Position numbers and translations under genes: made by a program
Shown: piece after piece, positions 39,196 to 61,974 of the stretch
How positions within the stretch are numbered: the stretch's first letter is position 1
Layout of the letters: the number at the start of each line of letters is the position of its first letter
Notes under the pieces: model-generated
What the model was told of the DNA's origin: nothing
Database searches by the model: none
The model's input: only the letters and a program-made list of their open reading frames with translations
Source: Candidatus Poribacteria bacterium
GTDB lineage: Bacteria; Poribacteria; WGA-4E; PCPOR2b
NCBI GenBank assembly: GCA_965208325.1
Contig: OZ242326.1
Coordinates: 2,847,363-2,911,362, forward strand
DNA: 64,000 bases
Direction: 5' to 3'

Positions 39196-39329
39196 CCCTT
39201 AGACTCCTGTTTTTGTATGGATTTTGATGGCTATAATAAAACCTATAATCATTTATACACTGCGGTAGGTGCGGTTAGGAAACCGTAGTGAAAGCGGGGC
39301 AAGATGCCCCGCCTACGGGTGTGCTGGCG

Positions 39330-46082: not shown

Positions 46083-46091
46083 TTTAGCGCG

Positions 46092-46532
46092 TTAGCTCCT
46101 CCCAATCAGGTTGAAATCATACACCTGTTGAACCAGCCCTAAAACATAGTCGAGGTTCTCGACCGACTTCAATTTTACAACGGTCCAACCGAAATCCTTT
46201 TTCTCGTATATTTCATGGGGATCCGTGATGTTGTCGAAAGGCATTTTTAAGTAAAAGGTCACGTGTTTCAGGTGTTGGTAGACTGATAAAAACTGTGTTC
46301 TCATCAACTTCGGAGCTTTGAAACCGACACTACCATCCGATTTTCGGTTAAACGCCTCAACCCCATCCAAGTCCAAAACACGCTGCATTAGCCGTTGGAA
46401 AAGAGCGTCCATGTCTGTTGGGGTCGGCGGCGTGTGCTCCTTGAGCCGTAACTGCTCCAGTTCGGTTCGCATCTCTTGGAGACCGCTTAACACTGAGTAT
46501 TTCCTCCTTTGGCACGACAGACATTTCAACAT
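46092..46532 (-). CDS. Hypothetical protein, probably co-transcribed with the histidine kinase
   Basis: 10-nt gap to the downstream kinase gene; no confident domain assignment. Confidence 0.35.
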   Translation of the reverse strand: MLKCLSCQRRKYSVLSGLQEMRTELEQLRLKEHTPPTPTDMDALFQRLMQRVLDLDGVEAFNRKSDGSVGFKAPKLMRTQFLSVYQHLKHVTFYLKMPFDNITDPHEIYEKKDFGWTVVKLKSVENLDYVLGLVQQVYDFNLIGRS

Positions 46533-46756
46533 CGGTGATAGCGCCTAGTGCGTCCGTCTTGGGAATAATTTGCTAGGGTCGCATATCCAATACTGCCGAA
46601 AAGCAACGTGTCTGCTCATTATCCAATTTGTTGTAGTCATTTCGGTTCATATTTACACAGAGAGGAAACGACTGATTGATAATCGAGGTTAGGAATCCTC
46701 TCCCACAAACCAATAATAAAAGCATAATTTTTAGTCGTAATGACTGTAAATTCAAA

Positions 46757-46894
46757 GTGAGCAATGCGTAAAATCTAATGCGTAATGCGTAATGAGTAAT
46801 GCGTAATGCGTAATGAGTAATGAGTAATGAGTAATGAGTAATGCGTAAAATGTAATACGTAAAATGTAATGCATAGAGGGTAATGCGGTAAGCG
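46757..46894. repeat. Heptanucleotide tandem repeat (GTAATGM)n, about 18 units
   Basis: gcaatgc gtaaaat ctaatgc gtaatgc gtaatga gtaatgc gtaatgc gtaatga gtaatga gtaatga gtaatga gtaatgc gtaaaat gtaatac gtaaaat gtaatgc ... ; shorter arrays of the same unit at 54364-54398, 56288-56323, 57185-57234, 60252-60284 and 61938-61970. Confidence 0.9.
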
Positions 46895-46923
46895 GCTCGA
46901 TTGCGTTAGAAAATGAATTTAGA

Positions 46924-46959
46924 AAGAAACCGTGTTTTGAAGAAAAAACTCGGTTTCTC
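46924..46959 (-). terminator. Intrinsic terminator hairpin immediately after the stop of the 46963-49716 gene
   Basis: On the minus strand, AGAAACCGAGTTTT-TTCTTC-AAAACACGGTTTCT followed by a T-rich tract; near-identical copies at 51611 and 57822. Confidence 0.7.
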
Positions 46960-46962
46960 TTG

Positions 46963-49716
46963 CTACTTCATAATCAGCATCTTCCGGCTGGCTGAAAAGT
47001 CCGGGGTATGCAATTTGTAGAAGTAAACACCAGAAGCAACCCGCTCACCCATGTTGTTACGCCCGTCCCAATACGCGGCGCGCGCCCGGCTATTATAAAA
47101 TCCCGCTGATTGAAAACCGATCGACAGCGTGCGAACCAAATTACCCGTTGTATCGTATATGGATATGGATACAGGACTGTCTTCCGTGAGTTGATATGGA
47201 ATCCACGTCTCCGGGTTGAACGGATTCGGGTAGTTCTGCAACAACTGAGTCTGCTTCGGTTGACCGATGGTATCCAGCCTGACAGACAATACTGCGTTTT
47301 CCAAGTGTTCAGGGGCCACTTTGAATCTCAGGGTTGGCGATTCAATATTTCCATCCAGACCAATGACGCGCACTTCAATCACGTCTCCGGCTTCGACAAC
47401 GCTCCGCCGCAACAAGTCTGCGGTCGCAGCGGCAAAGTAATCACCTTGCACCGGCGCGGTTATGATCTTGTTTGTTCTCAGGTTGAGGACGACAACTTGA
47501 TAGCCGTCAAATGACTGTACACCTTCCAAATGCCCACTCACAACGAACGCCCACGCGTTTTGAGCAACCCCCCTGTCCCCCCTTATCAAGGGGGTAATGG
47601 TGGGTGCCGCCGCGGCAGGCTCTGTTTGGCTAGTCCACGGCGCTCCGACGAAGGCGAAATTGCGGGTTTCCGGGACATTGACGATATAACCGCCGCCGCC
47701 TTCGATTGGAAAACCGTCGTTCGGCGCGCCCGGCGTCCACGCCACGAAACGCTGGTTCGGCGCATCGATCGTGATGACGGTTGTCGCTCCTGTCAGCCCG
47801 GCAAGCGACTTGGCGCTCATCGGGGTTGACGGCGCCAACGGCACGGAAATCATGTTCAATCCTTTCGGCAGCGTGACGTTGTAGGCGTTACTGAAATACT
47901 CACTCACTTCTTCGGCAACCGGTCTGGCGATAAACCCGTGTCGGCGTCCATCCGCCGAGTCATAGTGGCCGACGACAGAGCCGTCTTGATTGATATTCCA
48001 ACCCTCCGTGCCAACACTGCCGGGAACCTGCAATTCGTGCGGCTCCCCGAATCTGCCGACGTATGTGCGCGGGACATCACCCACTTGTTTGGCTCGACCA
48101 ACGATAATCCCTACATCGTTGATACCGTGCATAAAAATGTACTCGAAATCCGCGGCTGCTAAGATGTCGGCAAAACCAAATCTGCCATCCGGAGCACGCG
48201 CGTATGCCTGATATGTGCCGTCACTGTCCACATAGCTGCCCACAACGGCACCTGACGCACTCACAAAGTCGGCATAAGTTTCCACTGCTCCGGGGACTTC
48301 AACGATGGTTTCCCCGGAAAAGCCTCGCCGCACGCCGGCAGCGTCGATAAAATTGCCCGTCAGTGCCCCGGTCGCATCGGAAATACCGTATATCTCCGTT
48401 TGGACCGCATCCGGAAAATCATATTGCCGCAGTTTGCCATTTTTCAAGACGACACCGTGGTAAAGCCCCTGGTTGTCCTCGTAATGTCCGGCGGCAGTCC
48501 CATCGTTACCGAGCGCATAGAAATAAGTGTTCTTGGAATCAGGAAAATCATGCCTCGTAAAAACGCCATCAATCAGCGTAAAGGCGACTATTTTTTCACC
48601 ATCGGCAGACCGCGTGTAGCCGGCGTAATCCTCAAAATCGCTGCTCGCCGTCAACGCTAAAAATTCAACACCGGGAACATCAATACTCTCAAAAGTATAA
48701 GTGTAGTTGAGGATGTCAGGCGGTACAACGGGCCGATCGCCGCCCGTTGCAGCAGTCCTAGCGATAAACCCGTGTCTGCGCCCATCCGCCGAGTCATAGT
48801 ATCCGACGACAGAACCATCCTGATTGATATTCCAGCCGTCTGTGATAACACTGTCCGGTACCCGCAATTCATGCAGCCCGCCGAATCTGCCGACGTATGT
48901 GCGCGGGATGTCACCCACCTGTTTGGCGCGAACCACTGCAACGCCTAAATCGTTGACGCCGTATGGATACAGATACTCCAAATTCGATACGTCGAGAGCG
49001 TCGGCAAATATAAACCTGCCATCAGGGGCACGCACGTATGCCTGATATACACCGTCACTGTCTACGTAACTGCCTACCACGGCGCCCGATGCGGTCGAAA
49101 AAAAGGCATGAGTTTCCGCTGCTCCGGGGACTTCAACGACGGTATCCCCGGAGAAACCGCGGCGAACACCGGCATCGTCGATAAAATTGCCGGTCAGCAC
49201 CCCGGTCGCGTCAGAAATACCGTATATCTCCGTTTGGACGGCATCCGAAAAATCGTATCGCCGAAGCTCGCCATTTTCCAAGACGACACCGTGATACAGA
49301 CCATCGCTATCTTGGTAGTGTCCCGCGGCTGTCCCGTCATTACCCAACGCATAGAAGTGAGTTTTCTGCGAGCCGGGGAAATCATGGCGCATAAAAACAT
49401 CGTCAATGAGCGTAAAGCCGACCTCTCTTTCGCCATCGTCACTTTTCGTATATCCGGCGTAATCCTCAAAGTCGCTGCTCGCTGTCAGCGCCAAAAAGCC
49501 CACACCCGGAACATCAATAGTTTCAAAAGTATAGTTGGCGCCGGCGGATGCGCCTCCGGATTCATTGTTCGTTTGTGCGGCGGAATCCCATGGGAAAAAG
49601 GATTTGAGGCACATATACAACGTAAATATGTAAAACAAAAAATTCGGTTTTGTCTGAGTAATCGACATTAAAAACTCCTTTGTTGTATTGACTAAAGACG
49701 GCGGTTGGGTGTTCAT
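46963..49716 (-). CDS. Secreted HAF-like extracellular-repeat protein with a T9SS C-terminal sorting domain (paralog A); the probable start is the internal Met MSITQTK
   Basis: Internally duplicated roughly 300-aa modules with a recurring G..N..G.VVG.Y.DS.G..HGF pattern (HAF-repeat-like); C-terminal NYPNPFNPETWIPYQL...YFYKLHT...MLIMK. Confidence 0.7.
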   Translation of the reverse strand: MNTQPPSLVNTTKEFLMSITQTKPNFLFYIFTLYMCLKSFFPWDSAAQTNNESGGASAGANYTFETIDVPGVGFLALTASSDFEDYAGYTKSDDGEREVGFTLIDDVFMRHDFPGSQKTHFYALGNDGTAAGHYQDSDGLYHGVVLENGELRRYDFSDAVQTEIYGISDATGVLTGNFIDDAGVRRGFSGDTVVEVPGAAETHAFFSTASGAVVGSYVDSDGVYQAYVRAPDGRFIFADALDVSNLEYLYPYGVNDLGVAVVRAKQVGDIPRTYVGRFGGLHELRVPDSVITDGWNINQDGSVVGYYDSADGRRHGFIARTAATGGDRPVVPPDILNYTYTFESIDVPGVEFLALTASSDFEDYAGYTRSADGEKIVAFTLIDGVFTRHDFPDSKNTYFYALGNDGTAAGHYEDNQGLYHGVVLKNGKLRQYDFPDAVQTEIYGISDATGALTGNFIDAAGVRRGFSGETIVEVPGAVETYADFVSASGAVVGSYVDSDGTYQAYARAPDGRFGFADILAAADFEYIFMHGINDVGIIVGRAKQVGDVPRTYVGRFGEPHELQVPGSVGTEGWNINQDGSVVGHYDSADGRRHGFIARPVAEEVSEYFSNAYNVTLPKGLNMISVPLAPSTPMSAKSLAGLTGATTVITIDAPNQRFVAWTPGAPNDGFPIEGGGGYIVNVPETRNFAFVGAPWTSQTEPAAAAPTITPLIRGDRGVAQNAWAFVVSGHLEGVQSFDGYQVVVLNLRTNKIITAPVQGDYFAAATADLLRRSVVEAGDVIEVRVIGLDGNIESPTLRFKVAPEHLENAVLSVRLDTIGQPKQTQLLQNYPNPFNPETWIPYQLTEDSPVSISIYDTTGNLVRTLSIGFQSAGFYNSRARAAYWDGRNNMGERVASGVYFYKLHTPDFSASRKMLIMK

Positions 49717-49929
49717 GTAAATTGTCTGAATCAGGATTTACAGGATTTAAGTTTATGTGGGTTGGGTTATGCGGTTTAGACAACGCTTTGAGCGACGCCG
49801 CTATTCGACGAGGTTGAGTTGATTTGATGCGTTAGCCTTTATTATCAGAAAGGCGGTGCCTTATATCTGGCTCAAAGCCAATGCAATTACACTGCATTAC
49901 CCCCAACCTAATTGTAAAGATATCTAATA

Positions 49930-50703
49930 TTAGATTTTTGATCGGTTATCATTTATGGGTTTCCATGTAAGTGAAACGGTGACGGTCAACCGGGTTACGT
50001 CGTCAAACTGCATGGCTTTTGTCCCGGCAATGTCTTGACCCCGAAAGGTTTCGGTCTTGCCGACAAAGTCGTCCGAAAAAGGAAATCCAACTCCGCCCGG
50101 TTCCGGGCAAGGCAATGAATCATCCTCAATAACGACAAGATATATCACCTTATCCTGCAGATCGTCGTATGTTAAATAACCGCCGTCGGACTTATTGAAA
50201 AAGGCGCCCACGGAGTAGAGCCTGTCCGACCCGTCTACATGTTCTAATCCGTTAATTTGACCGGAGCACGCAATAAAGTTATCTGCGCGGTCATAAATGT
50301 GAACCTCAATTTCAAGCCGACCGAATTCATACTCGTTCGTAACCGCAATTTCCGTGATGGTGACACGATCGGGCACACGTGAAACGAAAGGCCCGCCGGA
50401 ACCTAACGATTCTTCTAAGGGCGTAAACCTATTGTCAACGTCATCTCTGAACGTAAAAATCTGATCTTCAATCGCCATACGCGATTTGAAAATAGCGCCT
50501 TCAACGTCTCTCCGCAGGTCGGACTGTTCGCCACGCAACGTGGAAATTTCGTCTGCAAGATTGGGCCGCTCGTCTCTTAAAGAGTTTATTTCGGATTGGA
50601 AATCTTCGCGCAAAATATCAAGATCTTCTCGATCAACTTCAGCGCATCCAATCACAAGAAGAACTAAAATCATCACAATCGAATGCGTGTAACTTAGCTT
50701 CAT
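49930..50703 (-). CDS. Hypothetical lipoprotein with an N-terminal coiled-coil region
   Basis: The start is assigned to the internal Met giving the signal peptide MKLSYTHSIVMILVLLVIGCAEV (a lipobox); the upstream part of the ORF is probably not translated. Confidence 0.4.
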   Translation of the reverse strand: MKLSYTHSIVMILVLLVIGCAEVDREDLDILREDFQSEINSLRDERPNLADEISTLRGEQSDLRRDVEGAIFKSRMAIEDQIFTFRDDVDNRFTPLEESLGSGGPFVSRVPDRVTITEIAVTNEYEFGRLEIEVHIYDRADNFIACSGQINGLEHVDGSDRLYSVGAFFNKSDGGYLTYDDLQDKVIYLVVIEDDSLPCPEPGGVGFPFSDDFVGKTETFRGQDIAGTKAMQFDDVTRLTVTVSLTWKPINDNRSKI

Positions 50704-50905
50704 ATAGAACCCTCCATAGTTAGGACATGTTGGCATTTGAGTGAAAGGCTGATTTAATGCACCGACCGCTTCACAAACGCCAAGCATCCCCATCGTTCCT
50801 CCCATCCCCGACATTCTTCCTCAATTGGTTCCCTCATTACAAATTTGAAAGAGTCGGTAAATCCTTCAATTCCAATCGTTCAATGGCTTCAAGCCGGGTT
50901 GGGTT

Positions 50906-51412
50906 TTATTTCTTTTTGAAGACTATGGTACTACCATCATCGCTGTTCAGTGTGAGCGTATTCCCTTTTCTCGTCCAGGTGCCGGTGTCTTCGTCCGTAG
51001 GACCGACTGGTTCTACTTCTTCTTTAAATATACCGGTGCCTTCTACTGCTATAGGTGTAAGTGTATAATTGGAGTCAGATAGGGAGTAAGTGCCTGTCAT
51101 TTTCATTGAACCTTGCCCTGAAAGTTCCAAGCCTTCCTCTTCCACTTCAAACTTCACAGCGATTTCCGCTTCCACCGTTCCATTCTTATCAAACATCCAG
51201 TTATTGGCGACAATGGAAACATTTCCTCCTTCTTCGCCAAATTCTTCCACGAACAACCGGTCAAAACTCTGACCATCAATGGTTTCCCATGCCCAAGTTC
51301 CGACCCATTCATTATCATCCTCATCACTACCACAGCCGATGGATACAATAATCAGAACTACGTAAAGGCTAACTAACCACAAATACCAGCGGGGTATTAC
51401 GTGTTGAAACAT
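50906..51412 (-). CDS. Lipocalin-like lipoprotein
   Basis: Lipobox VSIGCGSDEDD, then NEWVGTWAWETIDGQSF (a GxW motif); similar to 19858-20442 and 25855-26400. Confidence 0.45.
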   Translation of the reverse strand: MFQHVIPRWYLWLVSLYVVLIIVSIGCGSDEDDNEWVGTWAWETIDGQSFDRLFVEEFGEEGGNVSIVANNWMFDKNGTVEAEIAVKFEVEEEGLELSGQGSMKMTGTYSLSDSNYTLTPIAVEGTGIFKEEVEPVGPTDEDTGTWTRKGNTLTLNSDDGSTIVFKKK

Positions 51413-51610
51413 CCTTTGAATCTCCCTTTTAGATTAAATGTTAGATTTTTGAACAAGTTTCGTAGGTTGGGCGTAGCGGTGTTGACGATAAACACTTCAA
51501 TGCGCCGCGTGCTTTACCTGGTTTGATTGCGTTAGAAAATGTGATTGATGGAGCGTAAACCAACCGACAAAAATCGAAGTTGAATCGGGAGGGGCTTCCG
51601 AAATTCAGAA

Positions 51611-51644
51611 AGAAACCGAGTTTTGAAGAAAAAACTCGGTTTCT
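51611..51644 (-). terminator. Intrinsic terminator hairpin after the 51649-54417 gene
   Basis: Perfect 14-bp stem AGAAACCGAGTTTT/AAAACTCGGTTTCT with a 6-nt loop, and a T-tract on the transcribed strand. Confidence 0.75.
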
Positions 51645-51648
51645 CTTG

Positions 51649-54417
51649 CTACTTCATAATCAGCATCTTCCGGCTAGCTGAAGAGATCGGGGTATGCAAT
51701 TTGTAAAAGTAAACACCAGAAGCAACCTGCTCACCCATGTTGTTACGGCCGTCCCAATACGCGGCACGCGCCCGGCTATGATAGAAACCTGCGGACTGAA
51801 AACCGACCGGCAGCGTGCGAACCAAATTACCCGTAGTATCGTATACGGATACCGTCACAGGACTATCTTCCGCGAGCTGATACGGTATCCACGTTTCCGG
51901 GTTAAACGGATTCGGGTAGTTCTGCAACAACTGCGTCAGTTTCGGTTTACCGATACCGTCAAGCCTGACGGACATTACGGCGTCTGCCAGGTGTTCAGTG
52001 GTCACTTTGAAACTTACGGCTTGAGATTCAACAACCCCGCCCGGTCCGATAACGTGCAACTCCACCACATCCCCGATCTCGACAACGCTCCGCCGCGACA
52101 GGTCCGCCGTTGCAACGGCGAAGTAATCGCCTTGCACCGGCGCAGCAATGGTGCTGTTTGTTCGCAAGTTACGGACGACAACGTGATAGCCGTCAAACGC
52201 GGGTTTAACTTCGTAGGTAGGGTTGGGTTCCCCAACCCTACCGCTTACAACGAACGCCCACGCGTTTTGAGCAACCCCCCTGTCCCCCCTTATCAAGGGG
52301 GTAATTGTGGGTGCCGCTGCGGTAGACTCTGTTTGATTTGTCCACGGCGCACCGACGAAGGCGAAATTGCGCGTTTCCGGGACATTGACGATATAACCGC
52401 CGCCGCCTTCGATTGAGAAGCCGTCGTTCGGCGCGCTTGGTGTCCAGGCGATGAAACGCTGGTTTGCCGCATCGATCGTAATAACGGTTGTCGCTCCTGT
52501 CAGCGCTGCGAGCGACTTGGCGCTCATGGTAGTTGGCGGCGCCAACGGCACGGAAATCATGTTCAATCCTTTCGCCAGCGTGACGCGGTAAGTGTTACCG
52601 AAATAATCACTCACTGCCTCGGCAACGGGTCTGGCGATAAACCCGTGCCTGCGTCCATCTACCGAGACGTAGTTTCCGACGACAGAGCCGTCCTGATTGA
52701 TATTCCACCCCTCCGTGCTGACGCTGCCCGGCACCTGTAATGCAGAGCGTCCACGCGCCGATCCGATATAGGTGCGTGGGACATCACCGATCCGTTTGGA
52801 GCGGGCAACGAAAATTCCTGCAGTGTTGATTGCATGGAAAAAATAGTATTCGAGGTTATCGGCATTTTCCAAGTCGATAGATGTAAATTGGCCGTGCGCA
52901 TGTATATATCCGTGATAAAGCCCCTGAGCGTCGACGTAACTCCCTACCAGCCGCCCGGCAGCCACAAAGTCCGCGAAGGTCTCCGAGGCGCCGGGGACTT
53001 CAATGACGGCATCGCCGGTGAATCCACGACGCACCCCTTGAGCGTCCGTGAAATTTCCTGTCAGCACACCTGTTTCATCAGAAATTCCGTATATCTCAGT
53101 TTCAACAGCACCGGGGAAATCGTATTGCGTAAGTACCCCGTTTTCCAAGATAACACCGTGAAATGACCCCTGGCTGTCTTGGTAATGTCCGGCGGCGCGG
53201 CCATCATTACCGAGTGCGTAGAAATAGGTGTTTTCCGCGTTCGGGAAATCGTACCTGGTAAAAACGCCGTCAATGAGCGTAAAGGCAACCATCTTTTGAC
53301 CGTGAGCACTCCTCGTGTAGCCGGCATAGTCCTCGAAGTCGCTGCTCGCAGTCAAATGTAGAAATTCTACCCCCGGCACATCAATACTCTCAAACGTATA
53401 GTCAGAGAAGGTCGGCTGCAGCGCAGGCGCCCCGGCGGGTCGGGCGATGAATCCGTATCTGCGTCCATCGGGTAGATTGTAGTATCCGACGACAGAGCCG
53501 TCCTGATTGATGTTCCAACCTTCCGTGCTCACGCTCTCCGGGAATTGTAATTCCACTCGCCCGCGGAATGTACTGACATGGGTGCGCGTGACATCACCGA
53601 CAAATTTGGAGCGGGTAACGTATACGCCCGCCTTGTTGATGCCGTGCACAAGAACGAATTCGATGTGTGCGGCGTTTGGGATGTCAACAGTCCGATACTC
53701 GCCATCCGGAGTAAGTACGTAAGTGTGATAGAGTCCGTCCATATCAATGTAACTGCCGACGAGCCGTCCTTCAGCCACAAAGTCGGCGAAGGTCTCTGCG
53801 GCACCGGGCACCTCAATGATGGTGTCCCCTGTGAACCCGCGCCGAACCCCATCAGCGGCGATAAAATTACCCGTCAGCGCACCTGTTTCATCAGAAATCC
53901 CGTATATCTCCGTTTCAACGGAGCCGGGGAAATCGTATTGCCGGAGTTCGCCATTTTCTAAGACGACACCGTGATATTGACCATCGCTATCTTCGTAGTG
54001 TCCCGCGGCTGTCCCGTCATTACCCAACGCATAGAAGTAGGTGTTCATTGAATCCGGGAAATCATGGCGCGTAAAAACGCCATCTATGAGCGTGAAGGCG
54101 ACCATTTTGCCGCCGTCCGTACTTTTCGTGTAGCCTGCATAGTCCTCGAATTCGCTGCTGGCGGTCAATGCTAAAAAGTCTACATCCGGAACTTCAATAC
54201 TCTCGAAGGTATAGTCGGCAGCGGTTTCAGTGTTGTCTTGTGCAGCCGTGTCTTTTAGGAACAAGGAATTGAGGCAAAAAAACAACGTAAACGCGTTAAA
54301 CAAGAAACTTTTTTTAATCTGAGTGGTTATCATGAAAAACTCCTTTTGCGTAAAACGTGATGGGTAATTCGTAATGAGTAAACGTAATGCGTAATGAGAA
54401 AAAGCAGATGCTGCCAA
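51649..54417 (-). CDS. Secreted HAF-like extracellular-repeat protein with a T9SS C-terminal sorting domain (paralog B); the probable start is the internal Met MITTQIKK
   Basis: Roughly 70 percent identical to 46963-49716 overall; 3' end and terminator about 90 percent identical at the nucleotide level. Confidence 0.7.
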   Translation of the reverse strand: MAASAFSHYALRLLITNYPSRFTQKEFFMITTQIKKSFLFNAFTLFFCLNSLFLKDTAAQDNTETAADYTFESIEVPDVDFLALTASSEFEDYAGYTKSTDGGKMVAFTLIDGVFTRHDFPDSMNTYFYALGNDGTAAGHYEDSDGQYHGVVLENGELRQYDFPGSVETEIYGISDETGALTGNFIAADGVRRGFTGDTIIEVPGAAETFADFVAEGRLVGSYIDMDGLYHTYVLTPDGEYRTVDIPNAAHIEFVLVHGINKAGVYVTRSKFVGDVTRTHVSTFRGRVELQFPESVSTEGWNINQDGSVVGYYNLPDGRRYGFIARPAGAPALQPTFSDYTFESIDVPGVEFLHLTASSDFEDYAGYTRSAHGQKMVAFTLIDGVFTRYDFPNAENTYFYALGNDGRAAGHYQDSQGSFHGVILENGVLTQYDFPGAVETEIYGISDETGVLTGNFTDAQGVRRGFTGDAVIEVPGASETFADFVAAGRLVGSYVDAQGLYHGYIHAHGQFTSIDLENADNLEYYFFHAINTAGIFVARSKRIGDVPRTYIGSARGRSALQVPGSVSTEGWNINQDGSVVGNYVSVDGRRHGFIARPVAEAVSDYFGNTYRVTLAKGLNMISVPLAPPTTMSAKSLAALTGATTVITIDAANQRFIAWTPSAPNDGFSIEGGGGYIVNVPETRNFAFVGAPWTNQTESTAAAPTITPLIRGDRGVAQNAWAFVVSGRVGEPNPTYEVKPAFDGYHVVVRNLRTNSTIAAPVQGDYFAVATADLSRRSVVEIGDVVELHVIGPGGVVESQAVSFKVTTEHLADAVMSVRLDGIGKPKLTQLLQNYPNPFNPETWIPYQLAEDSPVTVSVYDTTGNLVRTLPVGFQSAGFYHSRARAAYWDGRNNMGEQVASGVYFYKLHTPISSASRKMLIMK

Positions 54418-54440
54418 TTAGTGCTTTCATTTGATGCCCC

Positions 54441-54815
54441 TTACATCTGCGGTCTTTTACCGCGCCATTTAGGAATATTCGGGATGCTAGACGGATCCAC
54501 ATAGGGGGCGGGTTCTGAGAACAGGCGTCCGGGAACAGCGGGCGGTGCGCCGCCGTCAATGGAGCTGAGTCCCACGGGTAGCTTGGCAGTGTGCAGCGGG
54601 CGACGGGGTGGGGTTCTGAAATTTAAGTCGCCTTCTTCCTGCTGCGGTTTTTCCGGCTCTAATGGATGGCTGCGGATATGTGCTTCCATGAAAATCACGC
54701 TAATACCGCTCTTTTCGTTTAACGGGCCTTCTTTATCGTAGGCGGCGGCGAATATTACCCACAAGACGGTTGCGACGAACACAACCGCGATCAGGGCGCT
54801 AATCAACACTTTCAT
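54441..54815 (-). CDS. Hypothetical membrane-anchored Pro-rich protein
   Basis: N-terminal TM helix (LISALIAVVFVATVLWVIFAAAY); lies downstream of the TonB gene on the same strand. Confidence 0.3.
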   Translation of the reverse strand: MKVLISALIAVVFVATVLWVIFAAAYDKEGPLNEKSGISVIFMEAHIRSHPLEPEKPQQEEGDLNFRTPPRRPLHTAKLPVGLSSIDGGAPPAVPGRLFSEPAPYVDPSSIPNIPKWRGKRPQM

Positions 54816-54829
54816 TGTTTGCTTCCTAC

Positions 54830-55063
54830 TCAGAGAATACCTAGGATTTCTTCGGGGTCGTCGTTGGTATCACTATATGCAATCGTAATTTCACCGCCAG
54901 GGAGTGGGATTACGACATTTACACATCGCGGATCCCCGACCGATCTTTCAACAACCCTGCAAATGTCGACGATCAATTCATTTCCACTTAGGCGGGGACG
55001 GATTTCTATAAAATCGTCACCATTTCCGTACATCGATGGGTTTAAGTAGTTCATCTCTGGCAT
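54830..55063 (-). CDS. Hypothetical small protein
   Basis: ORF only. Confidence 0.25.
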   Translation of the reverse strand: MPEMNYLNPSMYGNGDDFIEIRPRLSGNELIVDICRVVERSVGDPRCVNVVIPLPGGEITIAYSDTNDDPEEILGIL

Positions 55064-55223
55064 AAAAACCTCCTCTTTTTGTGAAATGTCCGATAAGAGA
55101 CATATCGGACATTTTTTTCAGCGGAAAAATGGTGAGGGGGCGAGCCCTTTTTGGGCGAAAAAGCCCCGGTTAGTGTTTTGCCCGCGCCCAGCCCTTTAGA
55201 AGCGCGTATCTATCGACGAGTAT

Positions 55224-56165
55224 TTAATCCTCAATTTTGAACCGATACGGAATAATTATACGAATTGAGACCGGTTTACCGTCTTTTTGAGCCGGAGTAA
55301 ATCGTGACCGTTTCAACGCCTCAATTGCTTCTTCATCGCATCCATAGCCTAAAGGTTGGATAACCTCAATATCGCTTGCTTTGCCGTCAATTCCAATCGT
55401 GGCTTTTAACTTCACTACGCCTTCTTTTCCGGCATTCCGGGCGCGTTCCGGATACTTCGGCTTTGGTTTATGGACGGCTTTAGGCGGTACAGTGTTTTCC
55501 GTTATGTCCACGACGGGTACGTTGACAGTGTCGTCTAGCCCAATATCTGCGTCCGGGATGTCTGTCTCCATCTCGTTAAAAATTGATGGTCTGCCAGGTT
55601 TGGTGGGGGCAATCTTCGGCAATTCAGGTTCAATGCTTGGGCGTTCCCCTTCGGCGATTGGCGGCCTTTCAATTCTCGGTATCTCCGGCGGTGCATCAGG
55701 TGAGGCAATATCGAGATTATCTGAAGGGATAGTGATTTCGCCTGGGCCGGATGGAATATCCACCGGTTTTACCGGTTGACTGGGTTGGATAGTCTCAGTT
55801 TGCCGTATTTCGGGTTTAATTGTCTTGGCTTCACGCTCAGGTTCACGACGAATTGGTTTGATTTTCTCCGCATCAAACATATCAGCGACCACTACATCAT
55901 CATCGTGAATGGCGACATTTTTGGCAATGTGAAAAGCTACAAACAGCATGATGACCAAATGAAAAGCGAGAGATACAATCCACCCAAGAGATTTAGACAC
56001 GCGATTCCGCTTTCTTTGCCGCCGTTCTAAAATCGGCTGAACCGCAGGAATCGGGCGTTTGCGTTCATGATTTAGCGAATTCGACTTCGATTGAAATTCC
56101 TTGGTGTTTTCAACATTATGGTTGGACATGGTTCGAAAATCTCCTTTCTGTTTTGAGCGCATCAA
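55224..56165 (-). CDS. tonB: Energy transducer TonB
   Basis: N-terminal TM anchor; Pro/Glu-rich spacer (PEIPRIERPPIAEGERPSIEPELPKIAPTKP); C-terminal TonB_C domain (KPKYPERARNAGKEGVVKLKATIGIDGK...FTPAQKDGKPV). Confidence 0.75.
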   Translation of the reverse strand: MMRSKQKGDFRTMSNHNVENTKEFQSKSNSLNHERKRPIPAVQPILERRQRKRNRVSKSLGWIVSLAFHLVIMLFVAFHIAKNVAIHDDDVVVADMFDAEKIKPIRREPEREAKTIKPEIRQTETIQPSQPVKPVDIPSGPGEITIPSDNLDIASPDAPPEIPRIERPPIAEGERPSIEPELPKIAPTKPGRPSIFNEMETDIPDADIGLDDTVNVPVVDITENTVPPKAVHKPKPKYPERARNAGKEGVVKLKATIGIDGKASDIEVIQPLGYGCDEEAIEALKRSRFTPAQKDGKPVSIRIIIPYRFKIED

Positions 56166-56327
56166 GTTATTGACGGCGCTAGATTGTAATTCTACTTGAC
56201 TTTAAATTACCAGTAACCGAATGTCTTCTCCCTATGTGTCAATACTCGATCGAGGGTAACGAGAGCATCAGTCCTAACCGGTGCGGCGTAATGAGTAATG
56301 CGTAATACGTATTGCGTAATGAGTCTT

Positions 56328-56599
56328 TGTAGGTTGGGTTGAGCGGTGTAGACAACAAGGATTTCAATCCGTCGCGTGCGTTACGCGGTTTGATTTCGTT
56401 CGAATACATGATTGACCGAGCGTAACGTAACGCTTTTCGTATAGTCATATCGGTTCATATTTACGCGAGGAGGAATCGACCGATTAATTATCAAGGCTAG
56501 GAAGCCTATCCTACAAACCAATAGTAAAGGAATATTTTTAGATATAAAGACTATCGCCATCGCTATTCGCTCAGTCGATCGCTCAACCCAACCTACAAA
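56328..56599. mobile_element. MITE-like repeat, a full copy with terminal inverted repeats TGTAGGTTGGGTTGAGCGG / CGCTCAACCCAACCTACA
   Basis: Roughly 270 bp, non-coding, with a perfect 17-bp TIR; the internal consensus (gcgccgcgtgcgttac..ggtttgattgcgtta...ggagcgtaac...tcggttcatatttac..gaggaatcgac.gat..ataatcgaggctaggaagcct.tcc.acaaaccaatag) is shared by other copies. Confidence 0.8.
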
Positions 56600-56640
56600 T
56601 ACTGTTCGCCGGCAGGAGTTAGTCGAAATAGTCGAAATCG

Positions 56641-56904
56641 CTAGGTCGAACTTCCGAAGCTAACCAATACAAAGACAAGAAAAACTCCGACGATGAATCC
56701 GAATTCGTACCACCGGCCGTTGTTGTTTAATTCGTAGATGCCCACGTCTGTGAAGATGCTGGCGATTAAGGTGAAGACGCAAATCAAGCCGTGCCAAACT
56801 CCGCTGAAAAAGCCGGCGCGTTCGTAAGGAGTAGCGTCGCCGGGGAAACAGCTTGAGAATACAAACACAACGAGAAGTAGGGTTACCAATCTTAGGTATT
56901 TCAT
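56641..56904 (-). CDS. Small hypothetical membrane lipoprotein; the start is set at the internal Met MKYLRLV, since the 5' part of the ORF is a read-through of a MITE copy
   Basis: Signal peptide with the lipobox FSSCFPG plus two TM helices; the upstream ORF extension lies inside the repeat 56945-57142. Confidence 0.35.
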   Translation of the reverse strand: MKYLRLVTLLLVVFVFSSCFPGDATPYERAGFFSGVWHGLICVFTLIASIFTDVGIYELNNNGRWYEFGFIVGVFLVFVLVSFGSST

Positions 56905-56944
56905 GATTCCGCCTTTACTTTCTTCGCGTAAGGTTATCAGCTTT

Positions 56945-57142
56945 TGTAGGTTGGGGTAAGCGGTGTAGACAACAAAACATCGTAATGCCGCGTGGGTTAC
57001 ATGGTTTGATTGCGTTAAAAAATTTGATTGACGGAGCGTAACCCTACGGTTCTTGTAATAGCTATGTCGGTTGATATTTACACATTGGGGAAGCGACTGA
57101 TCGATAATCGAGGCTAGGAAGCCTGTCCCACAAACCAATAGG
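56945..57142. repeat. MITE-like repeat copy (left TIR plus core)
   Basis: Roughly 85 percent identical to 56328-56520. Confidence 0.8.
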
Positions 57143-57242
57143 CATCTGTAATGTTTTTTGTCGCAATGACCGTAAATTCAAAGTGAGTAATGAGTAAACG
57201 TAATGTGTAAAGCGTAATTAGTAATGCGTAATGAGCTTCTGC

Positions 57243-57328
57243 AGGTTGGGTTGAGTGGTGTAAACTACAAAAATCTCATAGTACCCGGTTTATTCGGTGT
57301 TATCCGCTTAACCCAACCTACAAAAACT
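57243..57328. repeat. Short (about 85 bp) MITE-like copy that retains both TIRs
   Basis: caggttgggttgagtgg ... cgcttaacccaacctacaaa. Confidence 0.7.
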
Positions 57329-57412
57329 GATTCTCTGAAGAAATAGCCCGCATTTCCGTGTCAAATTTCCAGCTGGATTTTCGCGGGTGTTTTTTTGCCC
57401 CCTCTAGCTCCC

Positions 57413-57647
57413 CCTTGTAAAGCTTACTATTACCCACATCTTAATGGAGGGTGCTAGAATCTGCGCACAACCCAACCTATAACCTCCCCTAACCCCGCCT
57501 TAGTAAGGAGGGGAATGATTATTGTAATGAGTCGACAAGGCGTTCTCACTGTAGGAGAGGCATCCCTGCCTCGACAATCGGCAGAAGGATTTCCCGCCCA
57601 CAGCGTGGCTCCGTGCGAATTTCTGGACTTGTGGGTAATAGTAAGCT
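57413..57647. mobile_element. A second, distinct 235-bp MITE-like element with perfect 16-bp TIRs (GCTTACTATTACCCAC / GTGGGTAATAGTAAGC), inserted inside another repeat
   Basis: The empty site is visible at 62184-62200 (cccccttgtaaa|ggggga); the filled site is cccccttgtaaa[g]-element-cttgtgaa|ggggga, implying a roughly 8-bp target duplication. Confidence 0.7.
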
Positions 57648-57821
57648 TGTGAAGGGGGAGAATTTTTTTTTGCCTCTTGTCGGTTCAGCGGTTCTGGAGG
57701 TGAAGACTTGAAGACTATCGACCTCCCTATTCGGTCGGTTGATCCTTCGCTATCCGCTCGGTTGATCCCAACCTAAAGAAATTCCAAGTTGAGTCGGGAG
57801 GAACCCCTCCCGAACTTCGGA

Positions 57822-57856
57822 AAGAGACCGAGTTTTGCAGAAAAAACTCGGTCTCT
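57822..57856 (-). terminator. Intrinsic terminator hairpin after the 57874-60162 gene
   Basis: Stem AGAGACCGAGTTTT/AAAACTCGGTCTCT with a loop GCAGAA (the third copy of this terminator type). Confidence 0.7.
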
Positions 57857-57873
57857 CTTGCCAATCTTGCAGT

Positions 57874-60162
57874 TTACTTGACGATTACCATCCGCCGTAA
57901 TGCGGTATACTCCCCCGCACGGAGTTGATAAAAATACAGACCACTCGCTACGTGCTCACCGAATTCGTTTGTACCATCCCAATACGCGGCTTTCGTCCTA
58001 TCCGTATAATTGCCCGCTGCTTGATGCCCTAAATCCAACCAGCGCACCAGCTCACCTTTGGAATCGTATATCGAAATTTGCACATCGGCGTGGTTCGACA
58101 GATGGTACGGTATCCACGTCTCAGGATTAAACGGATTCGGGAAATTCGGCAGCAGTTCAGCCGACTGCTGCGGCGCAGTGTCTCCACGTTCGATGACTTC
58201 GTCCGTGTCTTCCATATCCTCTAAATCGTCCAATGCCACACCCAAATCCCACAGGTGAATCACATTGTCGTAACCGCCGCTTGCAAGTATCCCGCCCCGG
58301 CTGACAGCTATACTCCGACCCCACTCGGTATGGCGTTCTAGCACGTGGAGCGGCGTGCCCGCTGCCGAGTCCCAAAGCCTGACGCTATTATCCTTACCCG
58401 TACTGGCAAGTATTTCACCATTCGGGTGGAATGCCGTGCTGAATACCCAGCCGGTATGCCCGGCAAGAACGCGGCTTGATTCTGTCTCGAGATTCCACAA
58501 CCGGACGCTGCCATCCGCGCCGGCACTGGCAAGCGTGTTGCCATCATCGAACGCGACGCTCAATACCTGTTCCTCATGTCCGGAGAATTCCTTTGTGATT
58601 TCACCGGTTTCAGGATTCCACAGCCGGACAATCGCATCGCCGCCGCTGCTGGCGAGCATGTCCCCGCTCGGATGGAAGGCGACGCTCCAGGCGCGAACCG
58701 AGTGCGCACGTATGCGATGCTTGCGCTCAACTCTACTCAAGTTGGAAATGTCCCAAATGGAAATATGCCCATACTCTGTCCCAGTTGCCAGGGTGTTCCC
58801 GTCCGGACTGAAGTCTATGCCCCAAACTGTACCGCCCGGTCTGATAATTCGTTTGATTCGCCCCGTATCAAGGTCCCACAACAACACTCTGGCATCCATG
58901 CCGCCGCTCGCCAATGTGTTGCCGTCCGGACTGAATGCAACCGAGCGCACCGAAAACCGATGACCTTCAAGCGTCCGTATGAGTTCCCGTGTTTCAACCT
59001 CCCACAACCGGACGGTTTTATCTTTGTGCGCACTGGCAAGGATTTCCCCGCTCGGACTGAAAGCGACGCCGTATACCCGCTGCGTCCCGGTATCGCCCGG
59101 ATTCGATGTAGCTTCAATTGTGTCAATGTATGTGGGTTCGGGAAATAACGGCGTTGCTGTAGCAGTAAACACAACCGTCTCATCTACTCCGGCGGCTGAC
59201 GCTTCCACGGCAAACTCGCCCGGACTATCACCAAGCGTGAGCCTGGCAGAGGCTTGCCCAGCGGCGTCTGTGGTGGACGTTGGATGGTTCAATGCGCCAA
59301 CCCCGGTGAGGACGGTAAAGGTGACGGTCGTGCCCGCTAGCGGGGCGTCGTACTGGTCGCTAACCTTTACGACAAACGGGTCTGCCAACACGCTGCCGAT
59401 GAGTCCCGTCTGGTTATCTCCGGAGATTTTCTCCAATCGCACCGCCTTCGGGCGTGAGGGGTCAACGGTTACGGTAAATTCTGTATAGATGTCGGGTGTA
59501 TCGCTTGGATAGGCTTTGACGATGTATTGTCCCGCTGCATCGGTGCCGAGGGTGAGCGTCGTCGTGGCGCGTCCATTTGCATCTGTCGTTGCCGTCACAG
59601 GATTCAACGATGCGCTGGATTCGTCTCCGGAGTCAATAGAAAAAGTCAAATCTACGTCCGGCATGGGGTTTCCGTCCGCATCCCGCAATTCGACAGTAAG
59701 TCTCTGGCTTTCCCCGGGGCTAGTGACATGATTGTCGTCCGAGACATTTACCAGTTTCGGCGATGGCGGAGTTGGACACGATGGCTTACCAGTTATTATA
59801 AAGTTAATATTAGAGGTGGGGCGGGGATCTCTAGTGAGCCGCACTGTGACTGTATATGTGCCGCAGGCATTCGCATTAAAGTGCAATTCAAACCATGCAC
59901 GGCCATCGTCATCAGTTGCGGATGGGGCAGACAGCGTCGCAGTCCCGTTGTTTGGACTGAGGCCCCACGTCAAGGCCCCTCCTATAGGGTTGCATGTGGG
60001 CGCGCAAAGCACCAGCCCGAATTCGTAGCGAACGCCCGGCCATCCGGGCTCAACTTGCAGGGTATGACTCTCACTGGCAACCGCACCTAACGGTACTGAG
60101 AGACAGATAAACAGTAGATAGATGAGACCAATTGTTTGCTTTTCGATAGGGGCGCTTGACAC
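57874..60162 (-). CDS. Secreted protein with bacterial Ig-like domains, a seven-bladed WD40 beta-propeller and a T9SS C-terminal sorting domain
   Basis: WD40 repeats (GH..V.SVAFSPDGNTLASGG.D..V.LWD); Ig-like N-terminal domains; C-terminal LLPNFPNPFNPETWIPYHL...YFYQLR...MVIVK. Confidence 0.8.
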   Translation of the reverse strand: MSSAPIEKQTIGLIYLLFICLSVPLGAVASESHTLQVEPGWPGVRYEFGLVLCAPTCNPIGGALTWGLSPNNGTATLSAPSATDDDGRAWFELHFNANACGTYTVTVRLTRDPRPTSNINFIITGKPSCPTPPSPKLVNVSDDNHVTSPGESQRLTVELRDADGNPMPDVDLTFSIDSGDESSASLNPVTATTDANGRATTTLTLGTDAAGQYIVKAYPSDTPDIYTEFTVTVDPSRPKAVRLEKISGDNQTGLIGSVLADPFVVKVSDQYDAPLAGTTVTFTVLTGVGALNHPTSTTDAAGQASARLTLGDSPGEFAVEASAAGVDETVVFTATATPLFPEPTYIDTIEATSNPGDTGTQRVYGVAFSPSGEILASAHKDKTVRLWEVETRELIRTLEGHRFSVRSVAFSPDGNTLASGGMDARVLLWDLDTGRIKRIIRPGGTVWGIDFSPDGNTLATGTEYGHISIWDISNLSRVERKHRIRAHSVRAWSVAFHPSGDMLASSGGDAIVRLWNPETGEITKEFSGHEEQVLSVAFDDGNTLASAGADGSVRLWNLETESSRVLAGHTGWVFSTAFHPNGEILASTGKDNSVRLWDSAAGTPLHVLERHTEWGRSIAVSRGGILASGGYDNVIHLWDLGVALDDLEDMEDTDEVIERGDTAPQQSAELLPNFPNPFNPETWIPYHLSNHADVQISIYDSKGELVRWLDLGHQAAGNYTDRTKAAYWDGTNEFGEHVASGLYFYQLRAGEYTALRRMVIVK

Positions 60163-60964
60163 TTGAGAGTCTCCGATTCAACACGATCCAATAACTACTG
60201 GCAGTGGATTGACAAACTGCATTGCCTTAGATTGGATATCTATAGTCATTTGTGAGTAATGCGTAAAACGTAAAGCGTAATGAGAAAAAGCGTTGGGTTA
60301 GGCTTTGCGATTCTTGCCAAGAGCGGCGTCATATTTTAGGAATGGTAGACTATGCTTTGTGCGCATTCGGCATTTTCCGCTTTACCCAACCTACAAAATC
60401 TCGTCATCAAAAATTCCTCCTTTCTTTATTCTAGCAGTCCGTTCTTGATTGCATCAGGAAGTGCAATTTAATCAATCTGAGCCGCCTTTTTAATATACGA
60501 CCAGGCTGATTTACTGATTTAGGCGACGGGCTTTTGCTGGCGGAAAGGATGGGGTGCTGTAAACCCCAAAAAGCGCCAGCTGCCCGTCATTTAGACCTTA
60601 GGATTGTTTTTGATCGCACCGGGGAGTGCAATAGTCGCATTGTGGGCGAATTGTGGATAACTTTGCACGCTCTCGGTTATTTCACGTGTTCACTTTTTGA
60701 CCTCCTGAAACGCCTCTTGAACGCCGAACGGCACGCATTGATTCCAATTGAAACACCAGCACATCAAACGGCCGAACAGTTCCTCGTTCTCTAATATTTC
60801 GCCGGATTCGATTGCGCGAACAACTTCCTGCGCTTGACCCATTGGAACGCTATCAGAATTCGACATTACTCACTCCGTGTGTTCTTGGTTAGGCTATGTA
60901 ATTTCAAAGAGTTCTACAGGCGCAACGCGGACGGCGGCGGCAAGTTGGCGCGTGCGCGGTGATG

Positions 60965-61936
60965 CTACCATTCAACCGGTTCCGTGAGGGAAGCGTTTCC
61001 ATCTTTTAACTCATTCCTGGCTCTAAACCGCCCGTATCTAGCGTACTTAAAACCCGGTCTCAGACGTATCGCCTCATCGAAGTCTTGAATCGCGGCGGCG
61101 TATTGTTCCAGTTCATATTTCGCCCTACCCCGATAACAATACGCGTCGGCATAATCCGGTGTCATGCGAATCGCCTCGGTATAGTCGTGAACGCTAGCCG
61201 CATAATGTCCTATCTCATACTTCGCCCTACCACGCCAGTAGTAGGCGTCAACATAATCCCGTTCCAAGCGTATCACTTCGTCGTAGTCGTGAACACAAGC
61301 AGCATATTGTCCTAACTTAAACTTTGCCGTACCTCGCCAGTAATAATAAGCAGCAACATTATCTTCATGCCTAATCGCAGCGTCGAAGTCCGCCAGCGAT
61401 GCGGAATATTGTCTTAGCTTATACTTTGCCCTGCCGCGCCAATAATGGCAGTCATCTAAATGACTAAGACTGAGTCGTATAGCGGCGTCAAAGTCTGGAA
61501 TCGATGCGGCGTATTGTCTAAAGGCGTATTTCGCTACGCCGCAGGCGTAGTAAGCGTCCGCAAATTTTGGATTAAATAGAATCGCAGCATCGAATTCCGC
61601 AATCGCATCAGCGTATTGCTCGAGTTCATACATTTGCGCACCATGCTCAAAATAACGAATGGCATGGGATTCTCTATGCAGTTGGTGCGTCCGAGTTCTT
61701 GACGGACGGTCTCTTTCCGGTCGCGGACTTTCCTCCTTTGCGGGTTTGCCTTTCACAAGTTGATTGGTAATTACTTCGTATGCGTTTTGGACAAGTATAA
61801 AGCGAAGTTTTGCACCGGAGGACGGATCCTTGTCCGGGTGCATGACTTTCACGCGGTCACGATAGGCTTTCTTGGCATCGTCTAGTGTCGCATTGGATAC
61901 CAGCCCCAAAATGCGAAATGCTTCCTTTCGTGTCAT
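60965..61936 (-). CDS. DnaJ (J-domain) protein with TPR repeats
   Basis: N-terminal J domain with an HPD motif (KKAYRDRVKVMHPDK); then at least seven TPR-like repeats (AYYWRGRAKY.LGQYAA...DFDEAIRL). Confidence 0.8.
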   Translation of the reverse strand: MTRKEAFRILGLVSNATLDDAKKAYRDRVKVMHPDKDPSSGAKLRFILVQNAYEVITNQLVKGKPAKEESPRPERDRPSRTRTHQLHRESHAIRYFEHGAQMYELEQYADAIAEFDAAILFNPKFADAYYACGVAKYAFRQYAASIPDFDAAIRLSLSHLDDCHYWRGRAKYKLRQYSASLADFDAAIRHEDNVAAYYYWRGTAKFKLGQYAACVHDYDEVIRLERDYVDAYYWRGRAKYEIGHYAASVHDYTEAIRMTPDYADAYCYRGRAKYELEQYAAAIQDFDEAIRLRPGFKYARYGRFRARNELKDGNASLTEPVEW

Positions 61937-61974
61937 AGTGAGTAATGAGTAAAACGTAATGCTTAATGAGTTTT

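Follow-up and report, generated by a model that had tools for sequence, protein, structure and literature searches.

Six tandem arrays of the heptanucleotide GTAATGM lie in the intergenic spacers of a minus-strand gene string in a 64 kb stretch of DNA (the window, by which the whole stretch is meant throughout) from a sponge-associated Candidatus Poribacteria. Judged by their sequence, the arrays belong to the heptanucleotide class of prokaryotic long simple sequence repeats (long SSRs) and short tandemly repeated repetitive (STRR) sequences. They differ among related genomes by whole units and adjoin dispersed miniature repeats, here called element A and module B. The heptads are thus probably a slippage-prone microsatellite module which travels with miniature elements and is tolerated as a mutable leader or spacer.

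A scan for GTAA at ~7-nt spacing recovered exactly six GTAA-core arrays of 7-nt period in the window, all on the plus strand, as chains at 46768-46894, 54350-54397, 56288-56322, 57187-57234, 60256-60283 and 61942-61962; the same scan found none on the minus strand or in the other 49 kb of the window. Tandem Repeats Finder also returned a period of 7 at all six. Moreover, the doublet GTAATGMGTAATGM occurs 11 times in the window, always on the plus strand and between 46782 and 57234, while shuffled sequences are expected to hold 0.00. The original prediction, an earlier reading of this DNA, had listed six GTAATGC/GTAATGA arrays of 4 to ~18 units, and all of them are present where it had placed them:

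46761..46894, plus strand: array 1, ~18 heptads with a 21-nt higher-order period
54350..54397, plus strand: array 2, 7 degenerate units including the 6-nt GTAAAC
56288..56322, plus strand: array 3, 5 units, directly followed by a terminal inverted repeat (TIR) of element A
57187..57234, plus strand: array 4, 7 units including GTAAAC, preceded by module B and a linker and followed by a TIR element
60256..60283, plus strand: array 5, 4 units
61942..61970, plus strand: array 6, 4 units

Within the units GTAA (TTAC on the other strand) is invariant, while the remainder varies (GTAATGA, GTAATGC, GTAAAAC, GTAAAGC, GTAATTC and the 6-nt GTAAAC). Array 1, which runs from GCAATGC GTAAAAT CTAATGC through a near-perfect GTAATGC/GTAATGA run into degenerate units, is the sole long and nearly perfect tract, with four identical GTAATGA and nine near-identical units. 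In the degenerate arrays 2-6, never more than two identical units stand side by side. All six are head-to-tail, spacer-free, longer than chance and intergenic, and the repeat occurs patchily across phyla, which is the distribution of long SSRs. Three trivial readings were discarded: i) a CRISPR-like array, as there are no spacers between units; ii) an assembly artefact, as the arrays recur in three independent assemblies; iii) a coding repeat, as the 922-amino acid (aa) open reading frame (ORF) spans array 2 only by an artefactual start at an upstream TTG. The true start of this gene (HAF-like paralog B) is the ATG at 54334 after AAGGAG, and the gene call in a second genome of the species begins past the array.

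The arrays were compared at orthologous loci in that second genome (L198; same species, 96.3% nucleotide identity over 15.9 kb, fully syntenic) and in one sister genome (two loci, L121 and L199). The unit numbers were as follows:

Array 1: 18 in the window, 13 in L198 and 4 in L121, with gaps of exactly 35 and 98 nt between flanks that are ~93-100% identical
Array 2: 7 in the window and 7 in L198 with one substitution; segment absent from the sister genome
Array 3: 5 in the window and 1 in L198, an exact 28-nt gap; segment absent from the sister genome
Array 4: 7 in the window, 7 in L198 (identical) and 5 in L121
Array 5: 4 in the window and 5 in L198 (a 7-nt insertion); L199 has module B there instead
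Array 6: 4 in the window, 4 in L198 (identical) and 3 in L199

At array 3, L198 has a single GTAATGAG unit at the TIR junction. The array indels measured on the alignments (98, 35, 28 and 7 nt) were all multiples of 7, within flanks of otherwise 93-97% identity, and only one of the remaining 15 indels in the 16-kb alignment was (21 nt, at ~52204). Whole-unit indels are the signature of slipped-strand mispairing; therefore the claim that these arrays are of variable length is confirmed, and their variation by slippage is supported, on the evolutionary scale, with whole-heptad changes at orthologous positions. The expected difference in copy number between genomes was found against L198 for arrays 1, 3 and 5, while arrays 2, 4 and 6, all of them degenerate, keep the same count despite 3.7% site differences. 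The rate of slippage, as read from these alignments, looks modest.

The spacers are built as a mosaic of nested miniature elements, in which the order module B, linker, heptads, element A recurs:

56321..56430, plus strand: element A, ~105 nt, bounded by the TIRs TTTGTAGGTTGGGTTGAGCGG...GGAGCGTAACCAACCTACAAAA (its ends also given as TTTGTAGGTTGGG...CCAACCTACAAAA), recognised from repeat families and inverted repeats
Starts at ~51454, 56938, 61968, 62593 and 32668, same orientation: further copies of element A
46888-46915: internal fragment of element A after array 1
56371-56389, plus strand: terminator-like hairpin with a T run, within element A
46627..46731, plus strand: module B, ~105 nt, a repeat family with the hairpin GAGGYTAGGAAKCCTC
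56435-56539, 57052-57156 and 62083-62187: other copies of module B
46728..46760, plus strand: linker TTTTTAGTCGTAATGACTGTAAATTCAAAGTGA from module B to the heptads, found again at 57154-57186
57236..57328, plus strand: short TIR element with the arms CTGCAGGTTGGGTTGAGTGG / CCGCTTAACCCAACCTACAAAAA, right after array 4
60284-60401: relative of the short TIR element, after array 5
46925..46958, minus strand: terminator-type hairpin of HAF-like paralog A, the inverted repeat AGAAACCG..GTTTTGAAGAAAAAACTCGGTTTCT
51611-51644 and ~57823-57856: hairpins like that of paralog A
54403-54415: short hairpin before array 2

The window holds at least six copies of element A, all in one orientation. The TIR TTTGTAGGTTGG directly follows arrays 3, 4 and 6, and array 5 is followed by a variant of element A, GAAAAAGCGTTGGGTT...CCCAACCTACAAAA; array 1, on the other hand, has only an internal piece of element A after it, and array 2 nothing but a short flank, GAAAAAGC, which it has in common with array 5. 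The statement that a MITE (miniature inverted-repeat transposable element) follows each array thus holds for arrays 3, 4, 5 and 6 and fails for arrays 1 and 2. Nevertheless all six touch mosaic sequence, whether module B, the GAAAAAGC flank, or the TIR-bounded element A or a variant of it, and the idea that the arrays were delivered by a repeat element is reasonable, since they are physically tied to dispersed miniature elements. Terminator-type hairpins precede arrays 1 and 2 by roughly 30 nt or less; for array 1 this is the hairpin of paralog A, which lies ~30 nt before the array in the direction of transcription.

The copies are related to one another. Arrays 2-6, together with a copy from a related genome, align as homologous blocks composed of GTGA, the units, GTAATGAG and the TIR. 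In particular, arrays 2 and 4 both carry the odd GTAATGA-GTAAAC-GTAATG, and therefore are copies of one block and no independent expansions. Module B, linker and heptads recur together at two unrelated loci of the window and in L121, and the linker is kept in both L121 and L198. Heptads are missing from at least seven copies of element A; they are therefore an optional companion of the element and not an obligatory part of it. With the sequence (T)GTAGGTTGGG, the TIRs form inverted pairs whose arm is not itself palindromic. Their likeness to repetitive extragenic palindromes (REP/REPIN) was considered, and the window contains neither a transposase gene nor one for a REP-associated tyrosine transposase (RAYT). 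Rfam gave nothing at the gathering threshold over the whole window and, at E <= 1 over 46-64 kb, only one chance miRNA match, and the 72 loci matching the linker-heptad junction AAATTCAAAGTGAGNAATG in a metagenome scan were all chance matches without heptads. Heptads, element A and module B were absent from three remoter Poribacteria loci and from a 24-kb housekeeping region (cell-division cluster) of the sister genome. On these comparisons the repeat system is lineage-specific and concentrated in this plastic cluster.

These data are consistent with the following course of events. A miniature-repeat family (module B, linker, heptads and the TIR element A) would have colonised the spacers of a plastic gene cluster that encodes secreted, eukaryote-like proteins. 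The comparison of copies indicates that preformed blocks of 4-7 units spread first and that length then changed in place, always by whole units; the changes may have come about by slipped-strand mispairing at replication or repair, and fastest in array 1. The two strands differ: over the 315 nt of arrays the gene-sense strand holds 1 start and 3 stop codons, against 33 starts and 59 stops on the other strand, which is rich in AUG, UAA and UGA. The sense RNA, which reads (U/G)CAUUAC, consists of 26% C and 8% G, has no Shine-Dalgarno sequence and seems unstructured, that of array 1 folding at -9.1 kcal/mol over 131 nt (z = -0.7 versus shuffles). The orientation of the arrays adds no upstream ORFs and no structure, and would therefore be tolerated as harmless in a leader. 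Any effect on expression would then be likely to come from spacing or leader length and not from a promoter within the heptads. Two functional readings of the sense RNA were rejected: a structured leader or riboswitch, as it folds no better than shuffles (neither the DnaJ-TPR leader nor that of HAF-like paralog B has structure beyond that of shuffled sequence), and a Rho loading site, as only array 1 is of sufficient length.

The genes next to the arrays, with start codons set from sequence and in agreement with independent gene calls in L198, form one co-directional minus-strand string (43956..61936) that harbours the arrays:

43956-46082, minus strand: PAS histidine kinase (Pfam)
46092 to ~46490, minus strand: small ORF of the kinase operon
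46963-49716, minus strand: HAF-like/FlgD_ig paralog A (Pfam)
51649-54334, minus strand: HAF-like/FlgD_ig paralog B (Pfam)
54441-54815, minus strand: 124-aa ORF
55224-56129, minus strand: TonB (Pfam)
56641-56905, minus strand: small lipoprotein, labelled from sequence, with no significant Pfam match
57874-60162, minus strand: WD40/Big_1 protein gene with a GTG start (Pfam)
60965-61936, minus strand: DnaJ-TPR (Pfam)

Pfam agrees with the gene names of the original prediction for the kinase, the HAF-type paralogs, TonB, WD40 and DnaJ-TPR, and gives no significant match for the small lipoprotein. A sponge-metagenome contig encodes a protein 98% identical to the histidine kinase, and a 4.89-Mb contig one that matches it at 92%; the remoter named matches of the kinase are Candidatus Poribacteria. 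For the WD40 protein, a match at 95% lies on a 421-kb scaffold. Exact-protein look-ups for DnaJ-TPR, TonB and a CNNM transporter returned no record. A homology search with DnaJ-TPR was dominated by TPR proteins (best 51% identity over half the query) and missed the syntenic 323-aa genes of L198 and L199.

The position of the arrays relative to genes carries little information. Each array does lie 5' of a minus-strand gene, as had been claimed; this is automatic for any spacer between ~14 kb and 64 kb, where every gene-consistent ORF of 120 aa or more has the minus-strand orientation. The arrays are "upstream of genes" because every spacer of a co-directional string is upstream of some gene, and each of them is also 3' of another minus-strand gene. 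Their distances from the downstream start codons range widely. Array 6 ends 5 nt from the DnaJ-TPR ATG, without a Shine-Dalgarno sequence (the asserted abutment is thus correct), while array 2 and the HAF-like paralog B ATG are 15 nt apart, with AAGGAG between. The distance is ~94 nt from array 5 to the WD40/Big_1 GTG, ~159 nt from array 3 to the TonB ATG (56129), ~282 nt from array 4 to the start of the small lipoprotein and ~278 nt from array 1 to the start of the small ORF/PAS-kinase operon, and two of these gaps hold whole MITEs. At DnaJ-TPR the sister genome has an ordinary leader of ~95 nt with AGGAG between the heptads and the start codon (L199 6866-6962), which is missing from the window (61930-61945) and from L198, where the heptads abut the ATG; the gene is intact, at 323 aa, in the window, L198 and L199.

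Arrays of GTAATGN also occur outside Poribacteria. A scan for three perfect GTAATGN units, with one genome per species, returned at least 120 loci, from more than 100 genomes. Among the matches listed most were cyanobacterial, with others from Bacteroidota, Chloroflexota, Acidobacteriota, Vulcanimicrobiota, Armatimonadota and further phyla, and the units were mostly GTAATGA and GTAATGG. A universal orientation relative to genes was rejected, as the combinations among the matches listed from these at least 120 loci were mixed (+/+ 37, -/- 24, +/- 21, -/+ 15), and so was a single mobile element across phyla, as the same matches had no conserved flanks. It was also observed that, in these other phyla, a same-strand gene often ends 5' of a GTAATGN array and then usually has its stop codon in or just before the first unit: among the matches listed, with a crude ORF proxy, the median stop-to-array distance was 4 nt (45 of 63 within 15 nt), compared with medians of 71-181 nt for other kinds of neighbour.

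Several findings bear on what else the heptads could be. The original prediction proposed that they may carry a promoter box resembling that of Bacteroidetes (-7, TAnnTTTG) and that slippage could switch or tune transcription of the gene downstream. The placement of the arrays 5' of genes, the difference in unit number among genomes, the BrickBuilt MITE of P. gingivalis with its tandem repeat and promoter elements (PMC4596501), and the DnaJ-TPR gene, which has only heptads and a MITE upstream, are all compatible with this idea. The box itself, however, did not hold up: the host is a member of Poribacteria, and of the 41 TAnnTTTG matches in the window (37.3 +/- 5.8 expected, i.e. chance level) none lies inside an array. 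The sequence said to be contained in the arrays, TTACGTTTAC, is found in arrays 2 and 4 only, where it stems from the degenerate 6-nt unit GTAAAC, and is lacking in the other four. A consensus scan likewise detected no sigma-70-like site within the heptads on the gene strand and no regional excess (18 sites in 17 kb versus 20.2 +/- 4.1 expected); the nearest candidates, both weak (9/12), lie outside the heptads, one in the linker on the minus strand (TTTACA-18-TATGCT at 46750-46721) and the other on the plus strand of module B (TACACA-18-GATAAT), directed away from the start of the adjacent gene. Together with start distances of 5-282 nt and whole MITEs interposed at two loci, these results leave the promoter claim without support. 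Phase variation fares no better. Arrays 2-6 lack a long uninterrupted run of identical units and, with at most two identical neighbours, are therefore a poor substrate for high-frequency phase variation; moreover arrays 2, 4 and 6 are stable within the species, arrays 2 and 6 with the same count and array 4 identical in genomes of 96.3% identity. Switching by promoter-bearing heptads is thus very improbable. A short transcript is even harder to credit, namely that a plus-strand promoter in module B drives a (GUAAUGA)n RNA antisense to the gene string and ending at the hairpin of element A. TACACA-18-GATAAT occurs on the plus strand of two module B copies (46654-46683 and 57079-57108), pointing into linker and heptads; it is antisense to the genes and followed by the hairpin GAGGCTAGGAAGCCTC with a GGA loop. 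The site is kept or improved in other copies (a TATAAT-type -10 at ~62125 in the fourth copy, site ~62105-62135; TTTACA-18-GATAAT in L199, by eye), and the terminator-like hairpin of element A lies on the plus strand. Yet these sites score only 9/12, at chance frequency, and their repetition merely reflects common descent of the copies; the diverged copies of module B have hairpin mismatches without compensatory changes, and Rfam is blank.

A tunable leader is unlikely, though less so than either of these. Here an unstructured, start-free and C-rich sense leader would affect initiation (S1-type, independent of Shine-Dalgarno), mRNA stability or Rho loading, and a change in unit number would adjust the expression of host-interaction genes. 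The unstructured, G-poor RNA nearly free of starts and stops fits this, as do the arrays that abut the starts of DnaJ-TPR and HAF-like paralog B, the analogy to TAACTGA repeats, which have been proposed as translational regulators (PMC4679880), and the WD40, TPR and FlgD_ig-tailed secreted proteins encoded nearby. It does not fit that four of the six arrays lie 94-282 nt from the start codon, that the orientation is the reverse of the TAACTGA system, and that array 1, between a terminator hairpin and the promoter-like site of the linker, may be outside the downstream mRNA. We are equally doubtful of the stronger proposal that the heptads are contingency-type tuning elements brought by miniature elements to the leaders of host-interaction genes (WD40, TPR/DnaJ, TonB, FlgD_ig-tailed), and of a function for the mobile elements themselves, each of which we would rank between the tunable leader and the promoter. 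In the latter case the heptads would be subterminal binding or target sites, with TTAC as an insertion target in the manner of IS608, which inserts 3' of TTAC. In arrays 3, 4 and 6, as in L121 and L199, heptads do lie exactly at the element A TIR junction, L198 has a single GTAATGAG unit there, and GTAA/TTAC is invariant in all units; on the other hand, no heptad adjoins the end of at least seven element A copies, the window has no transposase gene, the elements have TIRs where IS200/IS605-type ends are subterminal hairpins, and the GTAATGN arrays of other phyla have unrelated flanks.

Three observations weigh against the reading of the heptads as a tolerated, travelling microsatellite: i) the six arrays and all copies of element A share one orientation, which could mean a strand-specific function; the binomial P of 0.03 is weak either way because the copies are related and the direction of transcription is confounded with that of replication; ii) DnaJ-TPR, which in the window and L198 has heptads as its only leader, is intact, and therefore the heptads at least permit expression and might promote it; iii) the recurrence across phyla, with stop codons abutting the arrays, suggests something beyond neutral slippage.

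The gene cluster that carries the arrays differs among genomes in other respects. The sister genome lacks a 5.5-kb segment (window 51545-57100 versus L121 4520-4640), which carries HAF-like paralog B, the 124-aa ORF, TonB, the lipoprotein and arrays 2 and 3; the junction falls in GATTGAT/GATCGAT, a motif common to element A and module B, and the difference looks like a repeat-mediated deletion or insertion. At ~51550-51601 L198 has ~148 nt extra at the right end of an element A copy, before a 168-aa gene. Downstream of the histidine kinase, the 1.7 kb at 42254-43956 have no ORF of more than 70 aa; the equivalent region of the sister genome encodes a 572-aa sigma-54-dependent response regulator, of which the window keeps a 37-aa remnant (43845-43955, 59% identity). 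The small gene upstream of the kinase (46092-46532) encodes ~133-146 aa here versus 180 aa in the sister genome (L121 9449-9991), with ~100 nt missing near its 5' end, and starts after a conserved AAGGAGG with GTG in the window and ATG in the sister genome. The two paralogs (46963-49716 and 51649-54334; 917/922 aa) contain internal duplications of ~834 nt. Further large proteins encoded in 36442-42254 share with both paralogs the same FlgD_ig/type IX secretion system (T9SS)-like C-terminal domain, and the genes with such tails have near-identical 3' ends and terminator hairpins, which suggests that the tail cassette may have been recently duplicated and exchanged. A repeat-rich stretch of ~4 kb, without any ORF that reaches 120 aa, includes at 29731-30759 a tandem of 3.2 copies of a 321-nt unit (96% identity), which is itself composed of short repeats of the GTAG type (CTGTAGGAGCGATCTCC..., TTGTAGGTTGGGTAGAGCGG). 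A search for tRNA genes in the window was negative.

These arrays offer an instance of simple repeats and miniature elements that appear to travel together and to remodel the spacers of a fast-evolving cluster in a sponge symbiont, through whole-unit slippage, a 5.5-kb segment difference with its junction inside two repeat modules, and the disappearance of a native leader. They also extend the heptanucleotide repeat class, which has been little studied, to Poribacteria, with a unit (GTAATGN) common to many phyla. Their importance would be greater if unit number tuned the expression of host-interaction proteins: gain or loss of units (1 vs 5, 4 vs 5, 4/13/18) would then alter leader length or upstream spacing, and hence expression, allowing fast and reversible variation of the surface and secreted repertoire in populations of an uncultivated symbiont. 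It would likewise be greater if the start of arrays at stop codons had a mechanistic cause across phyla.

Compared with known systems, the arrays are real and, on sequence comparison, their kind is ordinary. Heptanucleotide STRR repeats were reportedly described in cyanobacteria by Mazel and colleagues in 1990. With long SSRs and STRRs our arrays share spacer-free 7-nt units, intergenic placement, a length beyond chance, whole-unit changes and a sporadic phylogeny, and GTAATGN is also arrayed in many cyanobacteria; they differ in that GTAATGM is not known to be a named STRR unit (a full-text search gave 0 matches for published text quoting the heptad sequence), in their host, and in being short and dispersed with miniature elements. 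Units of 5-11 nt are given for prokaryotic long SSRs by Mrazek et al. 2007, as quoted in PMC4679880. The GGGNATC/GGGGAYT heptamers of Xanthomonas and Nostoc (Rehm et al. 2015, PMC4692102) are also intergenic, favoured between co-directional ORFs and variable in unit number, and lie closest to the ORF on their 5' side, overlapping coding-strand stops, which is echoed by the GTAATGN arrays of other phyla. However, they are G-rich and quadruplex-forming, which GTAATGM cannot be, and their authors found no association with mobile elements (PMC4692102). The phase-variable promoter and 5' untranslated-region tracts of Moraxella catarrhalis (the uspA1 G tract and uspA2 AGAT repeats), in the account given in PMC4679880, similarly place a slippage-prone repeat, with a copy number that differs by strain, between upstream signals and the start codon. 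As described there, those tracts are long and uniform with 1-4-nt units and a measured effect, whereas five of the six arrays here are short and degenerate.

Two systems come closer. BrickBuilt is a MITE of P. gingivalis with a minisatellite, for which experiments demonstrated promoter activity (Klein et al. 2015, PMC4596501) and which has been proposed to modulate neighbouring genes (PMC4596501). BrickBuilt sets a tandem tract of variable copy number between fixed leader and tail modules with inverted-repeat ends, in many intergenic copies, and the present repeats resemble it in that at several loci the heptads are flanked by the linker and module B on their one side and by a TIR element on the opposite one. 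Unlike BrickBuilt, whose unit is 23 nt, they have a 7-nt unit; the heptads lie outside the TIR-bounded element A, beside its end, with no inverted-end pair found to enclose them, and most copies of element A have none. The TAACTGA direct repeats of marine Beggiatoaceae, cyanobacteria and Bacteroidetes (MacGregor 2015, PMC4679880), for which no mechanism of horizontal spread was found (PMC4679880), are likewise heptamers of TAA, TGA and one further base, with one strand that stops all three frames and another that is open. They too come in short sets (2-6 units), of which some adjoin start codons that lack a ribosome-binding site, with 7-nt indels between strains and a patchy spread across phyla. 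In the Guaymas Beggiatoaceae genome the mRNA sense belongs to the stop-rich strand, and for most sets a start codon follows within a few nt (PMC4679880), whereas here a GTAATGM unit has its stop-rich strand antisense to the neighbouring genes, and start codons are 5-282 nt away, with 15 nt or less at just two of the six arrays. By this analysis, the GTAATGM arrays have their closest precedents in the TAACTGA repeats (PMC4679880) and the BrickBuilt MITE (PMC4596501).

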